DNA of 64,000 bases. It comes from an uncultured Alphaproteobacteria bacterium. GTDB taxonomy: Bacteria > Pseudomonadota > Alphaproteobacteria > Rhizobiales > Xanthobacteraceae. The translations under genes were made by a program, and so were the position numbers. Below the pieces are notes generated by a model that had not been told where the DNA came from, made no database searches, and worked only from the letters and a program-made list of their open reading frames with translations. Shown in pieces: positions 48,643-60,998 of the stretch (position 1 is its first letter; each line of letters starts with the position of its first letter). Where the stretch lies: contig CAVWMD010000027.1 of the NCBI GenBank assembly GCA_963755895.1, positions 240,881-304,880 of the forward strand. The letters run 5' to 3'.

Positions 48643-49851
48643 TCACCTGACCGCCTCAACCAGGCCCATGCCTTCGCCCCGCCAGTGACCGGCTCCGATC
48701 ACCACAATTTGGGTCGGAGGCTTCGACATTTCAACCTCCAGCGCGGTGGGATCGTTCGGGGAGAACAACGCGCCGCGCGAGATCGAGAGCGCTGCAAGCG
48801 CCAGGCCCAGCGGGAACTGCGCTTCCATGGTGTGGCCGAACGCGGTGCCGATGGCCCGCACCGCGAAATCCGGATGGTGGCGGAGAAACGCCAGTTCCTC
48901 CGACGTGACTGGCTCGGCGCCGGTTGCGCCGGTAATGATGGCGCCGTTGTCCTCAAGCTTGCCGAGCTTCGACCACAGTGTTTCGAGTGTTGCCGTCACC
49001 GCGCCGGGGCCCTTGCGGCGCGCCTGATCGGCCACGACGTTGGTCAGGCGGGCATAAGGCTTGGCGCCGCGCGCCTCCGCGTGCGGTCTGGATTCGATGA
49101 CAAGAAACGCGCCGGCCGAACCGAGCGCAAAGCCGGGCTTCGGGCCGCGTGCCCAGACCGGCTCGAACTTGTCCTTGAGGTTGAAATCGTCGAACTCGTA
49201 GAGCACCAGCATGTCCTTGCGCTCGCTGTTTTGCGAACCGCCGATCAATGCGATGTCACTCTGGCCTCCGGCGATGCGCGCCAGCGCAATCCGCGCCGCG
49301 TCGAAGCCTGCGGCTTCTTCGCCCATGAAAGTGCGCGACGTTCCGGTCACGCCATGCACGATGGCGATATTGCCGGCTAAAAGGTTCGAAAGCTGCGCCA
49401 GAAACAACGTCGGCCGCAGGTCGTTCATCAGCCGTTCGTTGAGGAAGTCGGGAGCCGAATTGCCCTTCGCTCTCAGGCTCAGGATGTTGCTATCCACCGC
49501 GAGATCGCGCTCGCCGCCGCCGGCGGCGACGATCATGTCCATCCGCCCCAGGATTTCCTTGTTACCCTTGACGCCGGCCGAATCCAACGCCAGTCCGGCG
49601 GCATAAGTCCCGATCCGCTGCCAGGCTTCCATCTGGCGCTGATCGCCCTTTTTGGGGATCTGGGTGTCGAAGTTTACCGGCGCCCAGGGATGAACGACAT
49701 AAGGCGCAAAGCCCTTCTCATCGACATTAGTGCGCCGCTGATTGAGCGCGTCCCAGTTCGCGTCCAGCCCTTCACCGAGGGACGTGGCAAGCCCGATGCC
49801 GGTGATCCAGACTTCCGCCGATCCCGGATTTGAAGATTTCGTCTCAGTCAT
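48643..49851 (-). CDS. fabF2XL: beta-ketoacyl-ACP synthase-like protein lacking the catalytic Cys (FabF2XL)
   Basis: Thiolase-fold KS-like sequence. The active-site position reads TSRTFMGEEAAG instead of TACASG, and the 402 aa translation contains no cysteine. Confidence 0.8.
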   Translation of the reverse strand: MTETKSSNPGSAEVWITGIGLATSLGEGLDANWDALNQRRTNVDEKGFAPYVVHPWAPVNFDTQIPKKGDQRQMEAWQRIGTYAAGLALDSAGVKGNKEILGRMDMIVAAGGGERDLAVDSNILSLRAKGNSAPDFLNERLMNDLRPTLFLAQLSNLLAGNIAIVHGVTGTSRTFMGEEAAGFDAARIALARIAGGQSDIALIGGSQNSERKDMLVLYEFDDFNLKDKFEPVWARGPKPGFALGSAGAFLVIESRPHAEARGAKPYARLTNVVADQARRKGPGAVTATLETLWSKLGKLEDNGAIITGATGAEPVTSEELAFLRHHPDFAVRAIGTAFGHTMEAQFPLGLALAALSISRGALFSPNDPTALEVEMSKPPTQIVVIGAGHWRGEGMGLVEAVR

Positions 49852-50350
49852 TGCCGGGGCTCGTCGGAGAGATTGGGTTCGTCGCAGGAATAACCTGATG
49901 CGGAAAACCGACGCGCTTGGCCTCGGCTTCCATGTGTCCGCGCAGATCGGGATTCGGGAAGGGGATAACGCCGAACGTGATCGTCGCGTTGCATCTCAGT
50001 TCGTTGTTCACCCGTACCTTCGCCTGGGTGATCGCGTAGCCCGAACCTTCGTGAACCAGACTCACATCGATTTTCAACAGATCACCCGGATTGACGAAGC
50101 TGCGCATCTTGGCTTCCTTGACCGCGGCCAGAAACGGCATCCGTTCGAACTTCGTCAGCGCAATCAGCAACCAGCCGGAACTCTGCGCCATGGCTTCGAT
50201 CAAGAGAACACCGGGCATGATCGGATAGCCCGGGAAATGCCCCTCGAAGATGGTGTTGGTTTGTGGAACCTGCGCCTCGACCGTAATCCGGCGCTCGCCG
50301 ATATCGAGTTCGACGATGCGGTCAATCAGCTTGAAATATTCGAGGTGCAT
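49844..50350 (-). CDS. fabZXL: 3-hydroxyacyl-ACP dehydratase (FabZXL)
   Basis: FEGHFPGYPIMPGVLLIEAMAQ hot-dog dehydratase motif. Overlaps the fabF2XL start. Confidence 0.88.
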   Translation of the reverse strand: MHLEYFKLIDRIVELDIGERRITVEAQVPQTNTIFEGHFPGYPIMPGVLLIEAMAQSSGWLLIALTKFERMPFLAAVKEAKMRSFVNPGDLLKIDVSLVHEGSGYAITQAKVRVNNELRCNATITFGVIPFPNPDLRGHMEAEAKRVGFPHQVIPATNPISPTSPGND

Positions 50351-50359
50351 GATGCGCGA

Positions 50360-50650
50360 TTAGGCGCTCGGGGTCTTGGCGGCGACCAGTTCGTCGATGC
50401 GTGCGCAGAGGTTCTTCAGCACGAAATACTGTTCGGTGGTGGCTTTGCCATCGTTGACTTCCTGGGTCCACTTTTCCAGCGGAAGCTTGATCCCGAACGC
50501 CTTGTCGATCGCAAACGCGATGTCGAGGAAATCGAGGCTGTCGATTCCCAGATCGTCGATCGCGTGGCTCTCCGGCGTGATCGTGTCGCGCGGTATGTCG
50601 CAGGTTTCAGCGATAATCGTAGCGACCTGATCGAATGTGGATGACATCAC
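50360..50650 (-). CDS. acpXL: acyl carrier protein AcpXL
   Basis: 96 aa. The phosphopantetheine site [12 protein letters not shown] and the extended C-terminus are typical of AcpXL. Confidence 0.9.
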
Positions 50651-50896: not shown

Positions 50897-51823
50897 TCAG
50901 AACCGGTTGGGGACGTACATTTCGGGCGGGATCGGTCCGCGGTGATAATCAGGGTTGTGGACCCTCGGCGGCAATACGACGGGCTGGTGCTGCACCTCGG
51001 AATAGGGAATCTGATCCAGCAGATGGGAGATGCAGTTAAGCCGCGCCCGCTTCTTGTCCACGGCATCGACGATCCACCACGGCGAGTCCGGAAGATGGGT
51101 ATGCTCCAGCATCGCTTCCTTGGCCTTGGTGTATTGCTCCCAGCGGCTTCGCGACTGGACGTCCATCGGACTCAGCTTCCACTGCTTCAGCGGATCCTGG
51201 ATCCGCATGGTGAAACGGAATTGCTGTTCTTCGTCAGTGATCGAGAACCAGTATTTGATCAGGATGATCCCGGAACGCATCAACATGCGTTCGAACTCCG
51301 GCACTGATTGGAAGAACTCCTGGTACTGATCCTCGGTGCAAAAGCCCATCACGCGCTCGACGCCGGCGCGATTGTACCAGCTGCGGTCGAACAGCACGAT
51401 CTCGCCGCCGGCCGGCAGATGCGAGACATATCGCTGGAAATACCATTGCGTCCGCTCGCGCTCGCTGGGGGCCGGAAGTGCTGCGACCCGGCAGATACGC
51501 GGATTGAGCCGCTGGGTGATGCGCTTGATGGCGCCGCCCTTGCCGGCGGAATCCCGCCCCTCGAACAGAACGACGACCTTTTTCTTTTCGTGCTGGACCC
51601 AATCCTGCAGCTTCACCAGTTCGCCCTGCAGGCGGAACAGCTCCTTGAAATAGACCCTGCGGTCGACGGTGTCGCGGCCGGACGGATCGGGTGCGTCGTC
51701 GGTGGCGGCGTCGAGCCGGTGATCGTCGAGTTCGAGCTCCAACTCCTCGTCAAGCGTATCGGCCATATCCTGGCGAATGCGTTCGCGCAGCGCGGCTTCG
51801 GCGGTCATATCGGATGGGGTCAT
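50897..51823 (-). CDS. ppk2: polyphosphate kinase 2
   Basis: FEGRDSAGKGG Walker A, YFQRYVSHLPAGGEIVLFDRSWYNRAGVERVMGF, and the PPK2 lid region. Confidence 0.92.
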   Translation of the reverse strand: MTPSDMTAEAALRERIRQDMADTLDEELELELDDHRLDAATDDAPDPSGRDTVDRRVYFKELFRLQGELVKLQDWVQHEKKKVVVLFEGRDSAGKGGAIKRITQRLNPRICRVAALPAPSERERTQWYFQRYVSHLPAGGEIVLFDRSWYNRAGVERVMGFCTEDQYQEFFQSVPEFERMLMRSGIILIKYWFSITDEEQQFRFTMRIQDPLKQWKLSPMDVQSRSRWEQYTKAKEAMLEHTHLPDSPWWIVDAVDKKRARLNCISHLLDQIPYSEVQHQPVVLPPRVHNPDYHRGPIPPEMYVPNRF

Positions 51824-52153: not shown

Positions 52154-52531
52154 ATGAATCCGGCCCAGAATGGTCACGACGCAGCGGACAAGATCGACGG
52201 CGCCAACGAGCACGATGAGGAGGGCGGCATCAACAAGACGGTCGCGACTGTCGTCGTCGTCGCAGCCGGCGCGGCGCTGTTCGAGGCCGCGTTGTTGCCG
52301 GGCCTTGTGCTCGGTGTGGCCGCGATGGCCGCGCCGAAATATCTACCCAAACTTGCGAGCTCGCTCAATCCGCTGTTCAAGTCGACCGTGCGCGGAACGT
52401 ACAAATTCGCGCAGAAGTCGAAGGAGATGTTCGCGGAAGCTCACGAACAGGTGCACGACATCGTCGCCGAAGTGAAAGCCGAGAACGAAACCGCGGCCAA
52501 CAGCGGCACGACGTCACGGCCGGCCGCCTGA
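52154..52531 (+). CDS. small membrane protein (DUF5132-like), first gene of the atypical P-type ATPase cluster
   Basis: ATG at 52154. One hydrophobic segment (VATVVVVAAGAALFEAALLPGLVLGVAAMAAP) is followed by an amphipathic helix. The DUF5132 assignment is from memory of the family pattern and has not been searched. Confidence 0.55.
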   Translation: MNPAQNGHDAADKIDGANEHDEEGGINKTVATVVVVAAGAALFEAALLPGLVLGVAAMAAPKYLPKLASSLNPLFKSTVRGTYKFAQKSKEMFAEAHEQVHDIVAEVKAENETAANSGTTSRPAA

Positions 52532-52793
52532 TCCTGCGATCGCGCCTGAGCAGGGCCCGCCAAGTGGAACGGGCCTTGCATCGCTGAAATTGTCTTGTGG
52601 CGTTGCCTTGGTGATGCGCGAGCGGCGTCAACGGGTTTTGCAAGCGGATTTGAATTTGCATTCCGGCCGGCGCTATCTGGCGAAGTGATCGAGACGGTGA
52701 GTTCGCGATGAGATCGCAACCAGTTCAGATCGCGACAAGATCAAATCGGCGGAATTGCCCGACCGAGACGCCTTACCGAGCCTGAGATCATTA

Positions 52794-53370
52794 ATGACCA
52801 AGATGAAACTGGAGATCGCGCATCAGGTACCGGGCCGGATCCGCATGAAGGTCGGTGCGGCCAAGGCCAATCCCGAACTGCTCGAGCAGATCAAGGAAAC
52901 CTTCATGGTGATCCCGGGTGTAGAGCAGGTCGAGGTCAACCCGGCAACCGGCAGCGTCGTGCTGCATTACGACGTCGACCAGCACGATGAATTTCACGGC
53001 CATTTGCAGCATCACACCGGCGGCCACCACCAGCCGCCGCCGACCAACGAGATCGACGCGCTCGCCAGCAAGATTTCAGCAGGAGGCGGAATTTCTCGCC
53101 GAGAATTCCCATACCGCCAGGGTGATCGTCGATTTCTTCAAGGCAACCGACAAGCAGATCAAGTCCGCCACCAGCAACACCGTCGACCTCAAGATCGTGC
53201 TGGCCACCGCGATCGCCGGCTTCACGATCCTCGAGGTGGGCGCCAGTGCCGCGACCCCCGTCTGGGTCACGCTCTCGATGTTCGGATTGAACCATCTGAT
53301 CGAAGCCAACAGCCCGGAGGCCCGGGCCGAAGAAGCCGAGGCCGAGGCGGCCGAAGCCGCGACCACGTGA
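52794..53370 (+). pseudogene. stand-alone HMA2-like (Cys-less heavy-metal-associated-like) domain protein with C-terminal TM segment, one frameshift
   Basis: MTKMKLEIAHQVPGRIRMKV...VEVNPATGSVVLHY parallels the ATPase N-terminus (HAMPGRLRLNV...). An extra t at aag att t cag (about 53073) shifts into ORF 52987..53370 (QQEAEFLAENSHTARVIVDFF...TILEVGASAATPVWV). Confidence 0.65.
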
Positions 53371-53399
53371 GGGCTCGCATTGTGTTTTGGATCGATTGA

Positions 53400-55514
53400 A
53401 TGAACTTCTCCGTCCGTCACGCAATGCCCGGCCGGCTTCGGCTCAACGTTCCCGAATTATGCCGAAAGCGTTCGCTGGCCGAGGCGGTCTTGCGCTGGCT
53501 CGGCGTCCAATCCGGGGTCAAGGCCGCGCGGATCAATTACGACTGCGCCAGCCTGGTGCTCGAATATGATCCTGCCCAGGAACCAGTGCTTCGGCTGCTG
53601 TTGGAGCGCTTCCGCAACGCCTCGGTCGTGGAAGTCAAGGCGCTCGCGGCCAGCGCGCCTGCCGGTTCGGGTGCATCCGCCGCGCCGCCCGCGGTGTCGA
53701 AGCAGATGCCGCTGGCGCTGCCGACATTGTCATTGGTGATGGCGTTCAGCGCCAATCCGGTGGTGTTCGCCGCCAACATGCCGTTGATGCTGTGGAACGC
53801 CTGGCCGATCGCCAAGCGCGCCTGGAAGGTGTGGGACAACGAGCGCAGGCTCAACATCGATGTGCTCGATACACTAGCGATCAGCGCCTCGGTGCTGCAG
53901 GGCAATCCGCTCGCCGGCTGTATCGTCACCTGGCTGATCAAGCTTGGCGACTGGATCCGTGACCTGACCGCGGCGGGCTCGCGCCGGGCGATCAGCGATC
54001 TGCTGGAATTCCAGACCAAGAGCGCCTGGATTATCAGGGACGGCGTGGTGGTTTCGATTCCGGCGGCGGACCTTACCGCCGGCGACCTCGTCGTGGTCTA
54101 TCCGGGTGAGATGATCCCGGTCGACGGCGAAATCATCGAGGGCCAGGCCACCATCGATCAAAAGACCATCACCGGCGAAGGCCTGCCGGTCAGCCGCGGG
54201 ACGGGTGAGGCGGCGTTCGCGGCCACCGTGATCCGCGAAGGTCAGATCACGATCCGCGCGCTGCGCGTCGGTTCGGACACCACCGCCGGCCAGATCGTAC
54301 ATCTCGTCGAGTCCGCGCCGATCGGCGACACCAGGATTCAGAACCATGCGGAGCGCTTTGCGGATCGCCTGGTGACGCCGACGCTCGGGCTCGCGGTCGG
54401 CACCGCGGCCCTCACCGGTGATTTCAACCGGTTTCTCTCGCTTGTCATCGTCGATTACGGCACCGGTATTCGCGTCGCGGCGCCGACGTCGGTGCTGTCG
54501 TCGATGACCCACGCGGCGCGCGCCGGCATCATCATTAAGAGCGGCGGCCATATGGAGCGCCTCGCCGGGATCGACACCGTGGTGTTCGACAAGACCGGCA
54601 CGCTGACCCACGGCACGCCGGCGGTTATCGATGTGATCTCCTACCAGCATCACATCACCTCCAACCATCTGCTGGGCCTTGCCGCCGCGGCGGAAACCCG
54701 GTTGACCCATCCGGTGGCGCAGGCGTTGCGCGACCGCGCGCGCGAGCTCGCGGTCAATGTCCCGCCGTGTGACGAAACCACCTATCGCCTCGGGCTTGGC
54801 GTCGAGGGCCAGGTCAACGGCTACTACATGCATGTCGGCAATTCGCGCTTCATGCGCGAGAGCGACATCAGGATCGACCTGTCGGTGTCGGACCGCAGCG
54901 CGCTCGACGAGAAGGGCTATTCCTGCCTCTATATCGCGGTCGATGGCCAACTCGCCGGCCTCGTGCCATATTCGGACGAAATTCGCGCCGAGAGCAAACC
55001 CGTGATCCAGAAGCTCCACGCCCTCGGCATCAAGGACACGATCATGCTGACCGGCGACAATGCCGTGGTCGCGCGCGCGGTGTGCCGCAACATCGGCCTG
55101 ACCCGGCATTTCGCCGACATGCTGCCGGCCGACAAGGCCGACATTATCCAGCAATTGCAGCGCGAGGGCCGGCGCGTCGCCATGGTCGGCGACGGCATCA
55201 ACGATTTCCCGGCGCTGAGCTTTGCCGATGTCGGCATCGCGATGAAACATGGCGCGGAAGTGACCCACGAGTCCGCCGATATCATCCTGATGGAGGACTC
55301 GCTGTGGCGCCTCGTCAAGGCGGTCGAGATATCGCAGGGCGCTGTCAGGCTGATCAAGCAGAATTATGCGATCGTCGCCGGACTGAACACGCTGGCGCTC
55401 GGATTGGCGTTGCCCGGAGGACTGATCACGCCCGAGGTCACGGCGCTGATCAGCAATGGCTCGGCGATTCTGGCCAGCATGAACGGTATCCGGCCAATCC
55501 TGCGGTACCAATGA
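53400..55514 (+). CDS. P-type ATPase, P1B-like architecture but lacking CPC/metal-ligand TM motifs
   Basis: TGE (ITGEGLPV), DKTGTLT (D397), THP (N-domain), TGDN and GDGIND are all present. The position about 45 residues before DKTGT reads VIVD352-Y-G-TGIRVAAPTS instead of CPC. The last TM segment has SNGS instead of MxxSS. The N-terminal domain has HAMPGRLRL and no CxxC. Confidence 0.85.
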   Translation: MNFSVRHAMPGRLRLNVPELCRKRSLAEAVLRWLGVQSGVKAARINYDCASLVLEYDPAQEPVLRLLLERFRNASVVEVKALAASAPAGSGASAAPPAVSKQMPLALPTLSLVMAFSANPVVFAANMPLMLWNAWPIAKRAWKVWDNERRLNIDVLDTLAISASVLQGNPLAGCIVTWLIKLGDWIRDLTAAGSRRAISDLLEFQTKSAWIIRDGVVVSIPAADLTAGDLVVVYPGEMIPVDGEIIEGQATIDQKTITGEGLPVSRGTGEAAFAATVIREGQITIRALRVGSDTTAGQIVHLVESAPIGDTRIQNHAERFADRLVTPTLGLAVGTAALTGDFNRFLSLVIVDYGTGIRVAAPTSVLSSMTHAARAGIIIKSGGHMERLAGIDTVVFDKTGTLTHGTPAVIDVISYQHHITSNHLLGLAAAAETRLTHPVAQALRDRARELAVNVPPCDETTYRLGLGVEGQVNGYYMHVGNSRFMRESDIRIDLSVSDRSALDEKGYSCLYIAVDGQLAGLVPYSDEIRAESKPVIQKLHALGIKDTIMLTGDNAVVARAVCRNIGLTRHFADMLPADKADIIQQLQREGRRVAMVGDGINDFPALSFADVGIAMKHGAEVTHESADIILMEDSLWRLVKAVEISQGAVRLIKQNYAIVAGLNTLALGLALPGGLITPEVTALISNGSAILASMNGIRPILRYQ

Positions 55515-56335
55515 TCGCAGAACTCAGCACAGTTCTTTCCCAGCCCGATCGCGAAGCCTTGAAGCTTGCGGTGCACAACCTCGAAAATCCGAATTTCGCC
55601 GCGCGGCTGGCCGATTACGCAGGTGTGCCGGTCAATCGCGTGCTTGGCATCCTGCCCAAATTCGCCAACGGCCAATTGAGCGCCATGGTACGCTCCGCGG
55701 TCATGAAGGGCCTCGATGTCGCCATCGACACGCTTGACGAGGACGCGACGCTGCCGCCGTTGACCGGCTTCTCGTCGTTTCTGGCGGGGGTCACGGGCGG
55801 GGTCAGCGGATTGATCGGCTTCGCGGCGCTGCCGTTCGAGCTGCCTTTGACCACCACCTTCATGCTCCGTGCCATCGCTTCGATCGCGCGGCACGAGGGC
55901 GAGGATCTGTCGCAGATCGAGCCGCGGCTTGCTTGCCTCGAGGTCTTCGCATTCGGGGCCAAGCGCCCCGCCGGGCAGCAGATCGATATCGGCTATTACG
56001 CCGCCCGTGCCTTGCTCAGCAAATACACCAACGAGATCGCCGCGTTCGTCGCCGAGCGCGGGGCGGTCGACGTCTCCGCTCCCGTGGTGACCAGCCTGGT
56101 CAGCGAGATCGTTTCGCGCTTTGGCCTTGTGGTGTCCGACAAGGCTGCCGCGGGCGCGTTGCCGATCCTCGGCGCGGTCGGCGGGGCGACCGTCAATGTG
56201 ATTTTCATGGATCACTTTCAACGGATCGCGCAGGGTCATTTCGCGCTGCGCCGGCTCGAGCGCACCTATGGCAGCGCCACGGTCCGCCAGCTCTATGCCG
56301 ATCTCTCCAGCAAGCCGGCGCAGGCTCTTGGCTGA
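55511..56335 (+). CDS. EcsC family protein
   Basis: The ATG overlaps the ATPase stop (ATGA). NPNFAARLADYAGVP...LPFELPLTTTFMLRAIASIARHEGEDL matches the EcsC family pattern. Confidence 0.7.
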   Translation: MIAELSTVLSQPDREALKLAVHNLENPNFAARLADYAGVPVNRVLGILPKFANGQLSAMVRSAVMKGLDVAIDTLDEDATLPPLTGFSSFLAGVTGGVSGLIGFAALPFELPLTTTFMLRAIASIARHEGEDLSQIEPRLACLEVFAFGAKRPAGQQIDIGYYAARALLSKYTNEIAAFVAERGAVDVSAPVVTSLVSEIVSRFGLVVSDKAAAGALPILGAVGGATVNVIFMDHFQRIAQGHFALRRLERTYGSATVRQLYADLSSKPAQALG

Positions 56336-56438
56336 GCTGTCCGGTTCAGACACGCCGCACGCGGCGAAACGGAAGCCGCCGCTGAGCACCCCGGTGTTGA
56401 ATCCCGTCCCCGATACCAGGCTGCGCAATCTGCGCCGG

Positions 56439-57638
56439 ATGCGCTTTCTCGCCACCGCGCTGTTGGGGCTGATGTTCGTCATTTTCATCGCAACCTCATT
56501 CGCGCCGGTGCAATGGCCCTGGCTGTCCTACCTGCAGGCCTTCGCCGAAGCCGGGATGATCGGGGCCTGCGCCGACTGGTTCGCGGTCGTTGCGATGTTC
56601 CGCCATCCGCTCGGCCTGCCGATACCGCACACCGCGATCGTGCCGCACAACAAGGGCCGCATCGGCGGCGCGCTCGGCCGTTTCGTCTCCAACAACTTTC
56701 TGTCGCCGCTGGTGCTCGAGGCAAAGCTGCGGGAGATCGATACAGCCGGATGGATCGCCCGCTGGCTGTCGGAGCGCGAGAACACCAGGCGCATCGCGCG
56801 GCGGGCCGCAGCGGCGCTGCCTCATATGTTGCAGGCATTGCCGCGCGATCAGCTCGGCGCATTCCTGACCCGCGCCATACGCCACGGCATCGAAGCCGTC
56901 CCGGCAGCGCCGCTTGCGTCGGAATTGCTGTCGCTGTTCTGGGCGCAGGGCGAGACCCAGGCGCTGGTGGAAAAGGCGATCTCGATCGCGGCCACAGCCC
57001 TTGTCGACAATCGCGACGTCATCAAGGCTACGGTTGCGAAGAAATCCTCGCGCTTCATCCCGAAATGGGTCGATGGCATCGTCGCCGACAAGATCATGAG
57101 CGGGGTGTCGCAGCTGCTCGACGAGATGCGCAATCCCGGTCATCCCTGGCGGCTCGAGCTTGGCGCAGCAATCGAGCGGCTGATCAAGGACCTCGCCGAG
57201 AATCCGCAGATGATCGGGCGCGGCGAGGAACTGAAGGCCGAGATGCTGAGCAACCCGATGGTCGCCGAGCAGGTCGGCAAGCTCTGGATCCGGATCGAAA
57301 CCAGGATCGGCGCAGATTCCGCATCCTATATCGATCCGCTATCCGACGGGCTCGAACGCGGATTGTCCGCGCTCGGCGGCTGGATGGCGCAGGACGAGAA
57401 AATCAAGACCGCGATCAATCAATGGGTCGCGATAGCCTTGCTGCGCCTGGTCGCACCGCGCCGCGCCGAAATCGGTAACTTCATCGCACAGGTGGTGGAG
57501 CGGTGGGATAGCGAAACGCTGGTCAACCGGCTGGAATTGCAGGTTGGACGCGACCTGCAATATATCAGGATCAACGGCACGCTGGTCGGCGGCCTCGTCG
57601 GCCTGATCATCTTTTCCGCCAAGCGGCTTTTTCTTTAA
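56439..57638 (+). CDS. DUF445 domain-containing membrane protein
   Basis: GACADWFAVVAMFRHPLGLPIPHTAIVPHNKGRIG is the DUF445 signature. The start is uncertain (ATG 56439, or GTG at about 56394). Confidence 0.75.
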   Translation: MRFLATALLGLMFVIFIATSFAPVQWPWLSYLQAFAEAGMIGACADWFAVVAMFRHPLGLPIPHTAIVPHNKGRIGGALGRFVSNNFLSPLVLEAKLREIDTAGWIARWLSERENTRRIARRAAAALPHMLQALPRDQLGAFLTRAIRHGIEAVPAAPLASELLSLFWAQGETQALVEKAISIAATALVDNRDVIKATVAKKSSRFIPKWVDGIVADKIMSGVSQLLDEMRNPGHPWRLELGAAIERLIKDLAENPQMIGRGEELKAEMLSNPMVAEQVGKLWIRIETRIGADSASYIDPLSDGLERGLSALGGWMAQDEKIKTAINQWVAIALLRLVAPRRAEIGNFIAQVVERWDSETLVNRLELQVGRDLQYIRINGTLVGGLVGLIIFSAKRLFL

Positions 57639-57652
57639 GCCTCTCTCGCCGG

Positions 57653-58768
57653 TCAAAGCCCGGGCGAGAAGGTGACGCCGTCGGCCTCGGTCATCTTGTG
57701 GATCGCGGCATCGAACGACATCCGGTCGGCATTTTCCAGCGACTGTGCGCGCAGCGTCTCGGTCAGTTCGTCCTGTTCGAGCAGGAAGCTCTGACCGTCG
57801 CGAAGCCGGACATAAGCCGCCCAGGGAATGAATTTGGTGAGGGGGAACGGCAATCCCTCGGGCGGCGAGATGTCGATATTCAGTCCCGAAATGAACAGCA
57901 GGTTTTTACCGCGGTAGGCCGGCTCGTGCAGGATGCTACGATAGGTGCGATCGAATTCGAGCTGGGTATGGTAGCGCGCGGCGTCCAGCGCCGGCTCCGA
58001 TGACGTCACCAAGGTCGGCATCGCCGGAGCCAAGGCGGCTTCGAGGATGTCGTGGCCTTCAGGCCCTTCGGTCGGAGTGCGGCGGAAATGAAACATGTCC
58101 GGCGTCAGCCGGGAGCCGATCGGCTGTGGTTTGGTGCCAAAGGTCTCCGTGGGCAGGCTCGCAGCGAACGACGCCGCGGCCGGAAACGCCTTTGACGTGC
58201 TCAGCACCCTGAGCGGCTCTTCGCTGTGATCGACCAGCCGGTCCATATTCAGAAACAGGCCCTCGTGACGCCGTTCATCGAGGAACTGGTTGTCGATGAA
58301 CACGGTCGGCACGCCCTCGATGCGGCCGCACAGCACGTGATCGCGGGCCTGCTGGTATTCATGCTGATACCAATGCAGCACCGCGCACATCTTGCCGCAA
58401 CTGTCGCCGAACTCGCGGCCGGCGGTGCGCGGGCGCTGGTAGACGCCGAACCGTCTGGTATCGGCGTCGTAGCCGACATGGCTGGCCTGGACGATGATCA
58501 GGTCTTCGCCGTGATGGGAATGCGGCCCATGGCGATTGATCGCGACCTTGCCGCCGACCCGGCCATGGTCGAAGGGAAACGTGCCGAAATGCTGCGCCAG
58601 CAGAATGACGGGATAGCCCTGGCTTTCGTCCGAGCAGAACGCCCGCGACGGCATCATCCGCTGGCGCTCGAAACCGAGCGAAAGGCAGTAATTATACAGC
58701 CGCGGCACAAAATGGCTGTACCGCATCGCGCGGTCGCCAAGCTTCAGGTTCTCGATGATGCGCCGCAT
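57653..58768 (-). CDS. LCIB/LCIC-like protein (beta-carbonic-anhydrase-related fold family)
   Basis: SRAFCSDESQGYPV...HGPHSHHGEDLIIVQASHVGYD...GDSCGKMCAV gives candidate Zn ligands C45/H97/C124 (numbered from Met 58768). The spacing is close to the Cys-His-Cys triad I recall for algal LCIB. Recognised from memory, not searched. Confidence 0.6.
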   Translation of the reverse strand: MRRIIENLKLGDRAMRYSHFVPRLYNYCLSLGFERQRMMPSRAFCSDESQGYPVILLAQHFGTFPFDHGRVGGKVAINRHGPHSHHGEDLIIVQASHVGYDADTRRFGVYQRPRTAGREFGDSCGKMCAVLHWYQHEYQQARDHVLCGRIEGVPTVFIDNQFLDERRHEGLFLNMDRLVDHSEEPLRVLSTSKAFPAAASFAASLPTETFGTKPQPIGSRLTPDMFHFRRTPTEGPEGHDILEAALAPAMPTLVTSSEPALDAARYHTQLEFDRTYRSILHEPAYRGKNLLFISGLNIDISPPEGLPFPLTKFIPWAAYVRLRDGQSFLLEQDELTETLRAQSLENADRMSFDAAIHKMTEADGVTFSPGL

Positions 58769-59362: not shown

Positions 59363-60262
59363 TTATGCCTGTTCGATGGTTTCGTTGAACCGGCCATAAT
59401 CCAGTCTCAAACGGCCGTCTTCCTGGGGGCCGAGGATATCGACATAGCTGCGGCCAAACAGGATGGCGGCGTGGTCGTACGACCTTCGGGCGTGGACCGT
59501 TTGCGCCGCAACAACATCATACCCGGACACCACCACCACGAGAGACGTGCTGGTTGCATCGAGGTCTTCCGCGCTCTGCTGATAGAGCGGGCTGTCTTCA
59601 TCGATCGTGTGGTAGAGCGTCCAGCTCAGCGCCAGCGCGGGGTGCTCGCTTCGCATCAGCGGCAATTCGTAAAATCGCCGATGCGATCGGCCCTCCAGGG
59701 TCACGACGTTTCTGAGCAGCCACAATTTGGCGGTGGCATTGGCGATAACGTTGTGACGTTCGTTGGCAAAACGTATCATCAGGGTCGGCTTGCCGTCGTG
59801 GTTTGAAATCACCGGATTGTCCGCGAACAACAGCCGTGCATTGGGGCGCGAGAACCGGGCAAAGATCAGGCCGGTCATCAACGACATCGAGAAGATGCCC
59901 GTGAACAACTCCACCGCGGCGATGAAATGCCCGTAATGGGTCTGCGGGTGCATGTCGCCGTAACCCGCGGTCGAAAGCGTCTCGATGCTGAAATAGAGAT
60001 AGTCGATATAGGCGCCGCCGGGGACGTTGGCGATCGGCTGATCTCCGATCCAGTAGAGCCAGGCGAAAATCGCGTTGAAGATCACAAACACCAGCGCGGC
60101 GCCGCCGATGAAGGCAGGCCATGTGGCGGTCATGCAGCGATGGCTGATGTCGGCCCAGAAACTGAGATGAAGGCCCTCGCTGATGATGATTTCGCGGTCG
60201 CCAAATCGAATGACCTGTTCGTTCGGTTTTCGTCTCGTTCCGTCGCCTTGAACATCGTCCAA
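59363..60262 (-). CDS. inward-rectifier-type potassium channel (KirBac family)
   Basis: YFSIETLSTAGYGDMHPQT pore and selectivity filter plus FARFSRPNARLLF and a cytoplasmic Ig-like C-terminal domain. Close to my recollection of KirBac1.1. Confidence 0.88.
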   Translation of the reverse strand: MDDVQGDGTRRKPNEQVIRFGDREIIISEGLHLSFWADISHRCMTATWPAFIGGAALVFVIFNAIFAWLYWIGDQPIANVPGGAYIDYLYFSIETLSTAGYGDMHPQTHYGHFIAAVELFTGIFSMSLMTGLIFARFSRPNARLLFADNPVISNHDGKPTLMIRFANERHNVIANATAKLWLLRNVVTLEGRSHRRFYELPLMRSEHPALALSWTLYHTIDEDSPLYQQSAEDLDATSTSLVVVVSGYDVVAAQTVHARRSYDHAAILFGRSYVDILGPQEDGRLRLDYGRFNETIEQA

Positions 60263-60371
60263 ATCTCTTGAAGCGCTCGCGCCAAAGGTATTTAATTGCC
60301 AGTGCCATCATGGCATAATCGCGGCGATTTAAGCGACATTTTTGCCCAGTCAGACATCGGGGGTTCAAGTC

Positions 60372-60998
60372 ATGGCGAATACGCGCGAACCGATCCTTCA
60401 GCCGGTCCCGATCCTCTCGCTGCGTCCGACCCAGATGACGGTCGGGATGCGGGAGGTCAAGGAAAAGCGCAAGCGCTGGCGCGAACACAAATCGGCGAAA
60501 AAGCGCGGCGAGATGCTGGGCAAGCATATGATCCCGGTGGTGCTCGGCCCGGACCAGCACTATTACGTGGTCGATCATCATCATCTGGCGCGCGCGCTTC
60601 ACGAGGAGGGCGTGAAGGACATTCTCGTCACCGTGATCGGCGATCTCACCATGGTCGAACGCGATGCGTTCTGGGGCGTGATGGACAACAAGCGATGGGT
60701 CTATCCCTACGACGCCAAGGGCGAGCGCCGGCACTTCAAGGATATTCCGAAATCGATCACCGCGCTCAAGGACGATCCGTTCCGCAGCCTTGCCGGCGAA
60801 TTGCGCCGCGCCGGCGGCTTTGCCAAGGACACGACGCCGTTCAGCGAATTCCTGTGGGCCGATTTCCTGCGCCGGAGGATGTCGCGCAAGAGCGTGGATG
60901 ACGATTTCGCCAAAGCGATGGAGAAGGCGCTGGCCTTTGCCAAAAGCAAGGATGCGATCTATTTGCCCGGCTGGTGCGGGCCGGCGTCGGACGACTAG
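60372..60998 (+). CDS. ParB-like nuclease domain protein (ParBc_2-like)
   Basis: ILSLRPTQMTVGMREV...VVDHHHLARALHEEG is typical of the stand-alone ParB/Srx-fold family. ATG at 60372. Confidence 0.7.
   Translation: MANTREPILQPVPILSLRPTQMTVGMREVKEKRKRWREHKSAKKRGEMLGKHMIPVVLGPDQHYYVVDHHHLARALHEEGVKDILVTVIGDLTMVERDAFWGVMDNKRWVYPYDAKGERRHFKDIPKSITALKDDPFRSLAGELRRAGGFAKDTTPFSEFLWADFLRRRMSRKSVDDDFAKAMEKALAFAKSKDAIYLPGWCGPASDD

Follow-up and report, generated by a model that had tools for sequence, protein, structure and literature searches.

P1B-fold P-type ATPases with a Cys-less M4 site and their conserved small-protein partners in an alphaproteobacterial gene cluster

P1B ATPases are defined by a soft-metal site made of Cys and Pro, and the motifs given for membrane helix M4 of groups P1B-1 to P1B-7 are CPC, CPH, SPC, PCP, SCA and CSC (PMC13460109). 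Here we analyse a P-type ATPase encoded, together with small membrane-protein genes, in a stretch of 64,000 nucleotides (the window) of contig CAVWMD010000027.1, from an uncultured alphaproteobacterium of the Xanthobacteraceae (assembly GCA_963755895.1). It belongs to a large, phylum-spanning branch that has kept the P1B engine and has rebuilt the ion site with Asp, Arg, Asn and Ser. By gene order, this Cys-less branch is tied to small-protein families of the ferrosome, the effluxosome and the calcyanin locus.

In the ferrosome system, FezA, FezB and FezC build lipid-bounded Fe granules (Grant & Komeili; bioRxiv 10.1101/2020.01.10.902569). The pump FezB (P1B-6) is defined by D[Y/F]SCA in M4 and HNxxT in M6, and the authors of that work also mention an N-terminal "R-rich" motif common to "related P1B-ATPases" and a second pump, FezH, neither of which they characterised (bioRxiv 10.1101/2020.01.10.902569). 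In the effluxosome, PacL (DUF1490) is a scaffold with a single transmembrane segment; through its Glu/Ala-rich helix it binds to the N-terminal domain, free of CxxC, of the P1B-6-like pump CtpC, whose stability and clustering depend on it (PMC13460109). The CoBaHMA domain (HMA_2, PF19991), in which the ferredoxin-like HMA fold is extended by a strand, beta0, with a conserved His, basic residues are conserved on beta1/beta2 and CxxC is absent, was first found in calcyanin (PMC8890360), and in Microcystis DUF5132 and CoBaHMA genes flank, and are co-expressed with, the calcyanin gene ccyA and cax, which encodes a Ca2+/H+ exchanger (bioRxiv 10.1101/2024.07.07.602159). An earlier, first-pass annotation of the window had rightly recognised an ATPase of the P1B fold, but missed these three published links, namely the CoBaHMA domain, P1B-6/FezB, and the presence of DUF5132 and CoBaHMA genes beside calcyanin. 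While the CoBaHMA, P1B-6/Fez and PacL context is published, the Cys-less clade, its invariant D…R site and the three-gene core reported below are undescribed in the literature searched, which lacked Gaschignard 2024 (doi 10.1002/prot.26668) and in which we found neither a description of a DYGTG or DFGTG motif in a P-type ATPase nor a characterised orthologue with that motif.

The ATPase and its rebuilt ion site

The ATPase, of 704 amino acids (aa), is encoded at 53400-55514 on the + strand and matches TIGR01525 with 507 bits (cut-off 346) as well as the families E1-E2_ATPase and Hydrolase. The intact catalytic core claimed by the first-pass annotation is present, with the motifs T258-G-E, D397-K-T-G-T (the phosphorylation motif, 54588-54602), H437-P438, T551-G-D-N and G597-D-G-I-N-D, so that the marks of the P-type superfamily (DKTGT, TGE, TGD, GDGxND) are all found. 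In a set of 58 homologues, 37-97% identical to the window protein, TGE, DKTGT, HP, TGD and GDGxND are invariant (58/58), and the degraded catalytic motifs in relatives that had been named as a possible sign of a relic were seen in none of these sequences. An AlphaFold2 (AF2) model built on the 58 homologues, with a mean predicted local distance difference test score (pLDDT) of 85, shows eight membrane helices in the P1B arrangement (residues 106-115, 120-148, 153-167, 170-206, 312-339, 342-374, 636-670 and 678-696), that is, the extra helices MA and MB and six core helices, without M7-M10. Its best Foldseek matches are CopA (7r0g, TM-score 0.75-0.81), ZntA, ATP7B and CadA, with KdpB next. The P1B-like topology suggested earlier is therefore borne out by the model, the TIGR01525 score and the structural matches, together with the HP motif. 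Modelling of the membrane site, which had been proposed as a check, shows the M4 helix (342-374) broken at residues 351-353, i.e. unwound at D352.

The M4 site reads D352-Y-G-T-G-I-R358-V-A-A-P362-T363 (54453-54488) and stands, in the alignment with CopA, for (A)CPC…ATPT. The segment V-I-V-D352-Y-G-T-G lies exactly 45 residues ahead of D397, where some 45 had been estimated, and the last helix carries, as reported, S685-N-G-S688 (55452-55463) in place of the MxxSS of CopA or the HNxxT of FezB. Aligned with HMMER, A-C-P-C of A. fulgidus CopA falls on D-Y-G-T, both Cys residues and the M4 proline, which P-type ATPases otherwise keep, being replaced, and DYGT fits none of the P1B-1 to P1B-7 motifs. 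The window protein shares with canonical P1B pumps (CopA, ZntA, CadA, ATP7B) the fold, the eight-helix topology, HP and the phosphorylation and dephosphorylation motifs, but lacks CPx/xPC with the M4 Pro and the CxxC domain, and has L-N for Y-N in M5 and SxxSA for MxxSS in M6 (hand alignment). Of the CopA YN motif, however, the N remains as N663, and the hand alignment, anchored on N-x-[IL]-R, shows one M6 Ser retained; the earlier statement that every canonical metal ligand had been lost is thus slightly overstated.

Among the 58 homologues, D352, G354, G356, R358, A361, P362 and T363 of M4, N663 of M5, and S685, N686 and G687 of M6 are invariant. Since catalytic and M4/M5/M6 residues are conserved to this degree, the alignment indicates that the ATPase is an active, working enzyme with a selected ion site. 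The ligands on offer are the hard oxygens of Asp, Thr, Asn and Ser, next to a conserved Arg, a composition that argues against Cu+, Zn2+ or Cd2+, in agreement with the first-pass view that an acidic or aromatic site speaks against soft, thiophilic metals.

The N-terminal domain (residues 1-73, 53400-53618) scores 29.4 bits with PF19991, a marginal match just below the cut-off of 30. In the AF2 model residues 4-73 fold as beta0-beta1-alpha-beta-beta-alpha, with beta0 at residues 4-9, and H7-A-M-P-G-R12-L-R14 lies on beta0/beta1; H7, R12 and R14 are nearly invariant among the homologues. Neither a CxxC nor a His-rich cytosolic HMA domain is present in the ATPase. The first-pass annotation had read H-x-x-P-G-R-x-R as a replacement of GMxCxxC, which is right as to the missing CxxC; the motif is not an in-place swap but, by its position on beta0/beta1, the CoBaHMA signature. 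The ATPase carries P-G-R-L-R-L here, and its small partners have P-G-R-I-R-M (stand-alone CoBaHMA protein) and P-G-L-V-L-G (DUF5132 protein).

A HMMER search of 1.8 billion cluster representatives (50% identity) was used to place the protein, the best 150 matches being sorted by their M4 motif. Among these, 87 were Cys-less with D-x-x-x-G, mostly D[YF]GTG[IV]R, 37 had D[YF][SAV]C and 16 were of the CPx type, and many members of all three classes carry N-terminal H-x-x-x-G-R-x-R. In a neighbour-joining tree the window protein lies inside the Cys-less clade, beside a clade with D[YF]SCA and CoBaHMA-CPC types. The Cys-less clade has named members in Melainabacteria, Blastocatellia, Deltaproteobacteria, Nitrospirota (among them the magnetotactic Ca. 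Magnetominusculus) and Balneolales. The window ATPase is 80-97% identical to proteins of Bradyrhizobium, which makes the source organism Bradyrhizobium-like.

FezB, the neighbour in the tree, shares with the window ATPase the P1B fold, an R-rich (CoBaHMA) domain instead of CxxC at the N-terminus, and an M4 that starts D-[YF] and has a basic residue five to six positions on. The window cluster also has the RxR motif and an operon with a GxxxG protein and an R-rich HMA protein, as fez operons do, whose small partners are likewise membrane proteins, one with GxxxG and one of the HMA/R-rich type. The motifs that define P1B-6/FezB are not those of the window protein, which has D-Y-G-T-G-I-R as against D[Y/F]SCA-x-K in M4 and S-N-G-S as against H-N-x-x-T in M6, Cys and His being gone. 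The partners differ too, DUF5132 here and DUF6110 in Fez. Among the hosts of the window clade are aerobic soil bacteria, while strict or facultative anaerobes make up most of the FezB hosts published, and Ca exchangers, ion channels and carbonic-anhydrase-like genes are found around the window clade, with no Feo or Fur seen in the sampled loci. Granules have been seen for Fez, while the window system is known here from genes alone.

In two distant loci, L086 (8001-15950) and L084 (8001-12879), two or three CoBaHMA ATPases with differing M4 motifs stand in tandem, those of L086 including DYAAGFK and DIGTGIR; the arrangement recalls the second pump, FezH, of large fez clusters.

The three-gene core and its later additions

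Five genes on the + strand stand close together in the window, as the first-pass annotation had described, and each has a Pfam or TIGRFAM match: a DUF5132 small membrane protein of 125 aa (52154-52531; PF17195, 36 bits, cut-off 25), a stand-alone HMA_2/CoBaHMA small protein with an interrupted frame (52794-53370; PF19991, 50.3 bits, cut-off 30), the ATPase, an EcsC-family protein of 274 aa with Gly-zipper-like hydrophobic segments (55511-56335; PF12787, 81.5 bits, cut-off 30.4), and a DUF445 membrane protein (56268-57638; PF04286, 335 bits). The overlap of the EcsC ATG with the TGA stop of the ATPase (ATGA, 55511-55514) is present as reported. The start of the DUF445 gene is uncertain, at 56268 or later: the ATG at 56268 would overlap EcsC, relatives begin one base past the EcsC stop, and the window has a CTG codon there.

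Gene order was compared over 127 related loci, 7 of them distant loci with precomputed Pfam calls and 120 of them metagenome loci, for whose retrieval a degenerate, clade-specific DNA pattern encoding D-[YF]-G-T-G-[IV]-R-x-[AS]-A-P-T was used. Loci were scored with local HMMs, only those with enough flanking DNA being counted, and were binned by identity of the ATPase to the window protein. About 70 canonical P1B loci served as controls, taken from a scan of genome contigs with generic peptide patterns (FDKTGTLTxG, GDG[IV]ND) that matched ordinary P1B loci, of 30-38% identity, and about 10 FezB-type loci. At ≥78% identity, DUF5132, the small CoBaHMA gene (both upstream) and EcsC (downstream) were each found in 5/5 loci, and DUF445 downstream in 1/2. 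Between 60 and 78% the figures were 30/30, 29/30, 24/34 and 14/21, respectively, and between 50 and 60% they were 9/9, 7/9, 0/7 and 0/7, EcsC lying upstream of DUF5132 in 2/9 loci of this bin. The 30-50% bin rendered DUF5132 upstream in 14/21 loci and downstream in 3 more, the small CoBaHMA gene upstream in 10/21 and downstream in 12/21, and neither EcsC (0/21) nor DUF445 (0/10).

Down to 40% identity, almost all of the 127 related loci have DUF5132 and the small CoBaHMA gene on the flanks of the ATPase; the canonical P1B control loci have neither. The conservation of synteny among homologues on which the first-pass interpretation depended is thus found for this core. EcsC was seen only with ATPases of about 57% identity or more, and DUF445 only from about 60% upwards; Bradyrhizobium sp. 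NP1 has no DUF445 gene. Because the core spans the identity bins and EcsC and DUF445 appear only in high-identity loci, DUF5132, the small CoBaHMA protein and the ATPase are the ancient unit, and EcsC and DUF445 are later, clade-specific additions. The coupling to EcsC and DUF445 stressed by the first-pass annotation is genuine in the close clade, where the ATGA overlap recurs in 32/38 loci in which EcsC follows the ATPase, but it is DUF5132 and the small CoBaHMA protein that accompany the ATPase universally. The EcsC protein belongs to its family by the PF12787 match and gave nothing significant in a sequence search of the Protein Data Bank (PDB); an EcsABC-type system is not seen, with no ecsA or ecsB ABC genes at 48.6-61 kb of the window or in the Pfam-annotated loci L001-L003, the metagenome EcsC loci having been screened with HMMs that lacked an ABC model.

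The DUF5132 protein has an N-terminal Gly-rich hydrophobic segment (…GAALFEAALLPGLVLGVAAMAAP, with GxxxG) and, after it, an amphipathic helix on the cytoplasmic side whose end reads E-x-x-x-D-I-V-A-E-V-K-A-E, and its homologues have the same Gly-rich transmembrane segment with GxxxG and a helix ending E-x-x-x-D-[IV]-V-A-E-[AV]-[KR]-A-E. In FezB loci of Firmicutes and Collinsella, a protein of 80-100 aa encoded directly upstream of the pump combines a hydrophobic, Gly-rich N-terminus with a helix that ends in …E-N-x-E-D-I-L-A-E-A-K, and is assigned to DUF6110 by Pfam. Other FezB-type control loci, those of Rhodobacter capsulatus (L049) and a betaproteobacterium (L009), have an HMA_2 small protein next to the pump. 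PacL-CtpC is similar to the window in that the gene directly upstream of a P1B pump without N-terminal CxxC codes for a small single-pass protein whose cytoplasmic helix is rich in Glu and Ala. It differs in that DUF5132 is not DUF1490 in Pfam and in that CtpC keeps CPC and HNx(S/T), and neither a third, CoBaHMA-hairpin partner nor EcsC or DUF445 has been described for it (PMC13460109).

Sequence comparison of DUF5132 with the two scaffold families gave an hhalign probability of 15% with DUF6110/DUF1490, over 26 residues of the C-terminal motif, and reciprocal HMM matches with FezA/PacL only in tiny databases; none of 9 DUF5132-type proteins matched DUF1490, even with E values of up to 5 allowed, and there was no cross-match in Pfam. 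Because the similarity is weak we claim only an analogy and no family membership, DUF5132 being treated as a protein that works like FezA and PacL. As to these two, the small proteins upstream of FezB-type pumps in L006 (3859-4134), L012 (448-753), L022 (7670-7939) and L073 (7300-7602) are DUF6110, and 3/6 had weak DUF1490 matches, which hints that ferrosome FezA and mycobacterial PacL may be related scaffolds.

The stand-alone CoBaHMA gene was taken in the first-pass annotation as one gene at 52794-53370, a claim that fails, because these 577 nucleotides are not a multiple of three and contain a one-nucleotide insertion, the coordinates having bridged two frames. The window has an extra A at 53078, reading TTTCAGCAGG as against TTTCGCAGG in both the 97%-identical relative L003 and Bradyrhizobium sp. 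NP1 (L001), so that the frame shifts after Ser95 and the conserved C-terminal membrane hairpin is lost. The protein is intact in L003 (194 aa), NP1 (185 aa) and L150, also a relative at 97% identity, and intact orthologues of 185-195 aa adjoin the ATPase in most loci. The insertion, which is without effect on the ATPase, could be a sequencing error or a strain-specific pseudogene or lesion.

The layout of the CoBaHMA protein, which resembles FezC, comprises a His-rich linker, a C-terminal membrane hairpin of two segments and a Glu/Ala-rich tail. The linker (52980-53043, QHDEFHGHLQHHTGGHHQPPP) is common to NP1 and absent in distant orthologues such as those of L085 and L089; it could bind metal despite the absence of CxxC. 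The Glu/Ala repeats of the tail (53320-53367, EARAEEAEAEAAEAA) recall the EA repeats of PacL that bind the N-terminal domain of the pump.

Neighbouring genes and the possible substrate

Downstream of the cluster and convergent with it lies a gene for a protein of 371 aa (57653-58768, - strand), for which a sequence search of the PDB gave nothing significant and Pfam a sub-threshold score of 16 bits (PF18599, cut-off 25); its relatives carry PF18599. Its kinship appeared only through an AF2 model (pLDDT 80) and Foldseek, where the top 8 matches were LCIB, LCIC, PtLCIB4 or the related 6kfs, all with probability 1.0, and nothing else matched significantly. C45-S-D-E, H97 and C124-G, corresponding to the Cys-His-Cys zinc triad of LCIB-type enzymes, are invariant, and the model thus identifies this neighbour as a beta-carbonic-anhydrase-like protein of the LCIB family, with a longer extension at its C-terminus. 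The LCIB family is best known from algal CO2-concentrating mechanisms. In L095 and L146 the gene directly follows DUF445 and shares its strand, and LCIB-family genes are near the ATPase clade in three lineages (including L205/L206) and in none of the control loci; it is probably a functional neighbour of the cluster. On the other side, a PPK2 polyphosphate kinase gene (50897-51823, - strand; PF03976/TIGR03707) is divergent from the cluster; NP1 and 8 metagenome loci of the 70-84% identity clade also have PPK2 nearby, in most cases running divergently from DUF5132. A Kir-like K+ channel gene (59363-60262, - strand; IRK_C and Ion_trans_2) follows two genes downstream and is present in L003 as well, and other K+ channels (TMEM175, Ion_trans) adjoin distant members of the ATPase clade.

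Calcium exchangers are found near the pump in two loci. In the distant one of Ca. Magnetominusculus xianensis (L090, 5893-15174; PEAH01000021), two Na_Ca_ex genes abut the ATPase on the same strand with gaps below 30 nucleotides, and in L186 the order is Na_Ca_ex, CLC, ATPase. After the ATPase of L090 the same strand continues with three small open reading frames (two weakly DUF5132-like), a CoBaHMA-DUF454 gene, a gene of unknown nature, T2SSE and a strong LCIB_C_CA match; the run looks like a candidate Ca/carbonate-handling island in a magnetotactic member of the Nitrospirota. The window clade also resembles the neighbourhood of calcyanin, the protein of cyanobacterial intracellular amorphous CaCO3, in its DUF5132 and CoBaHMA proteins (some with a DUF454-like hairpin) and its Ca2+/H+ exchanger (PMC8890360; bioRxiv 10.1101/2024.07.07.602159). 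A calcyanin or (GlyZip)3 gene was found neither at 48.6-61 kb of the window nor in the related loci, and in the literature searched no P-type ATPase is described in the Microcystis ccyA neighbourhood.

The reading that we tentatively prefer, and that falls somewhat short of probable, is that of a Fez/PacL-like pump module for a hard, non-thiophilic cation of the alkaline-earth or Mn type, with roles for the partner proteins. Substrate, direction of transport, partner roles and any organelle are what we infer from context, Ca2+ being favoured on these grounds; the data equally allow Mg2+ or Mn2+, and also H+. The ion site would be formed by D352 and T355 of M4, N663 of M5 and S685/N686 of M6, with R358 as a built-in counter-charge, and the pump would clear the cation from the cytoplasm, either over the inner membrane or to a store bounded by a membrane. 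The N-terminal CoBaHMA domain would be regulatory and may bind a partner or an anionic lipid rather than metal, DUF5132 would be a single-pass scaffold like PacL (DUF1490) and FezA (DUF6110) that stabilises or clusters the pump, and the CoBaHMA-hairpin protein would be a third component like FezC. In the Bradyrhizobium-type clade, the translationally coupled EcsC and DUF445 would have been added as membrane accessories, and the LCIB-type enzyme next door may handle the CO2/HCO3-/H+ side. From its ties in gene order, the Cys-less branch could be the missing primary transporter type of bacterial intracellular mineral or ion storage; at the least, such a module would extend the "pump plus scaffold" principle of PacL and Fez to hard cations.

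Several observations weigh against this interpretation. One acidic residue and a conserved Arg make a thin site for a divalent ion and fit H+ equally well, the CoBaHMA partner gene is frameshifted in the window itself, and the resemblance of DUF5132 to DUF6110/DUF1490 is as slight as reported above. The neighbours of distant members are heterogeneous, comprising Nramp-Usp, CorA, MgtC (twice), CNNM, CDF, SulP, CLC, and TMEM175 and other K+ channels, as well as PhoU_div and a ferritin-like protein, and because of this heterogeneity of neighbouring transporters the context does not single out Ca2+. The adjacency of LCIB and PPK2 in the Bradyrhizobium-type clade could be an inherited gene order and not a functional link, and Bradyrhizobium is, to our knowledge, not known for carbonate inclusions.

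It can also be the case, as a possible if rather doubtful alternative, that the ATPase is an ordinary plasma-membrane Mn2+/Fe2+ efflux pump working in a PacL-style "effluxosome" without a store, its Ca/carbonate neighbours being coincidental. Fe or Zn/Mn-type ions are handled by P1B-6/FezB and CtpC, the nearest relatives to have been characterised, Nramp-Usp and ferritin-like genes adjoin some members, and all known P1B pumps are exporters (PMC10654040). However, the Cys and His kept at the FezB/CtpC sites (D[YF]SCA, HNxxT) are exactly those lost here, and neither a Fur/DtxR regulator nor a Feo gene is present among the neighbours sampled, unlike in fez clusters.

A proton pump is an unlikely explanation: D352 and R358 would form an Asp-Arg pair as in P3A H+-ATPases, whose logic is of this kind, and the pump would energise an adjacent H+-coupled transporter (Ca2+/H+ exchanger, Nramp, CLC or CDF) at the cell membrane or an internal compartment. 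The single invariant acidic residue, the invariant Arg six residues on and the unwound helix are consistent with it, as is the carbonic-anhydrase-like neighbour, which fits proton handling. Moreover, it would explain why the pump is constant while its neighbours differ between lineages and are mostly H+-coupled: Na_Ca_ex (L090, L186), CLC (L186), Nramp (L183), Cation_efflux (L086) and the K+/H+-leak channel TMEM175 (L148, L205). On the other hand, we know of no P1B-fold proton pump that would serve as a precedent, the related FezB clade, assigned to iron, shares D…K in M4, and the invariance of N663, S685 and N686 suggests that the coordination shell is fuller than a proton would require. Built-in counter-ions have been discussed (PMC10654040).

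A more far-reaching proposal, which we regard as speculative and unlikely, is that the Cys-less CoBaHMA ATPase, DUF5132 and the CoBaHMA-hairpin protein are the loading machinery of an undescribed, ferrosome-like, lipid-bounded store of Ca/Mg carbonate or phosphate in aerobic soil bacteria including Bradyrhizobium, for which LCIB, PPK2 and the K+ channel would supply anion and charge balance; in a variant, the ATPase would be the first P1B-fold proton pump, energising such a compartment. Since the cluster occurs in culturable Bradyrhizobium, these ideas are directly testable.

It is quite improbable that the protein does not transport ions at all and instead moves or remodels anionic lipids, or serves as a regulatory or assembly ATPase for glycine-zipper membrane proteins such as DUF5132 and EcsC. 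Binding of anionic lipids has been put forward for CoBaHMA (Gaschignard 2024, as cited in bioRxiv 10.64898/2025.12.07.689555), the M4 proline is lost and the partners are Gly-zipper/GxxxG membrane proteins, but the polar residues at the M4/M5/M6 ion-site positions are strictly invariant, the fold is that of ion-pumping P1B and KdpB and not of P4 flippases, and the neighbours are ion transporters. Finally, an inactive relic or decaying pseudogene cluster, to which the frameshifted partner gene might point, can be dismissed: the frameshift is not in 97%-identical relatives, hundreds of intact homologues conserve the operon structure, and for the ATPase, with an intact reading frame and catalytic (DKTGT, TGE, TGD, GDGxND, HP) and site residues invariant across phyla in homologues of 37-97% identity, this hypothesis was rejected.

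Other features of the region

The region lies in a genome with a GC content of 60-65%. A search with Rfam (E up to 1, 50.5-60.5 kb) found no riboswitch or other RNA that would name the ion, and a promoter and terminator scan performed no better than on shuffled sequence. A GC-rich hairpin at 52553-52575, directly 3' of the DUF5132 stop, is conserved in L003 and L150, where it shows a G-U change. The spacer between DUF5132 and the CoBaHMA gene is about 118 bases longer than in L003, the additional part lying at about 52640-52756 and containing short GATCGC-type repeats. Upstream of PPK2, consecutive genes for an acyl carrier protein, a FabA-like dehydratase and a beta-ketoacyl synthase-like protein (48643-50650, - strand) look like a separate lipid or polyketide-type cluster. 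On the other flank, a ParB-like nuclease gene (ParBc_2) is located at 60342-60998 (+ strand), and a homologue of it is found near the cluster in metagenome locus L196.

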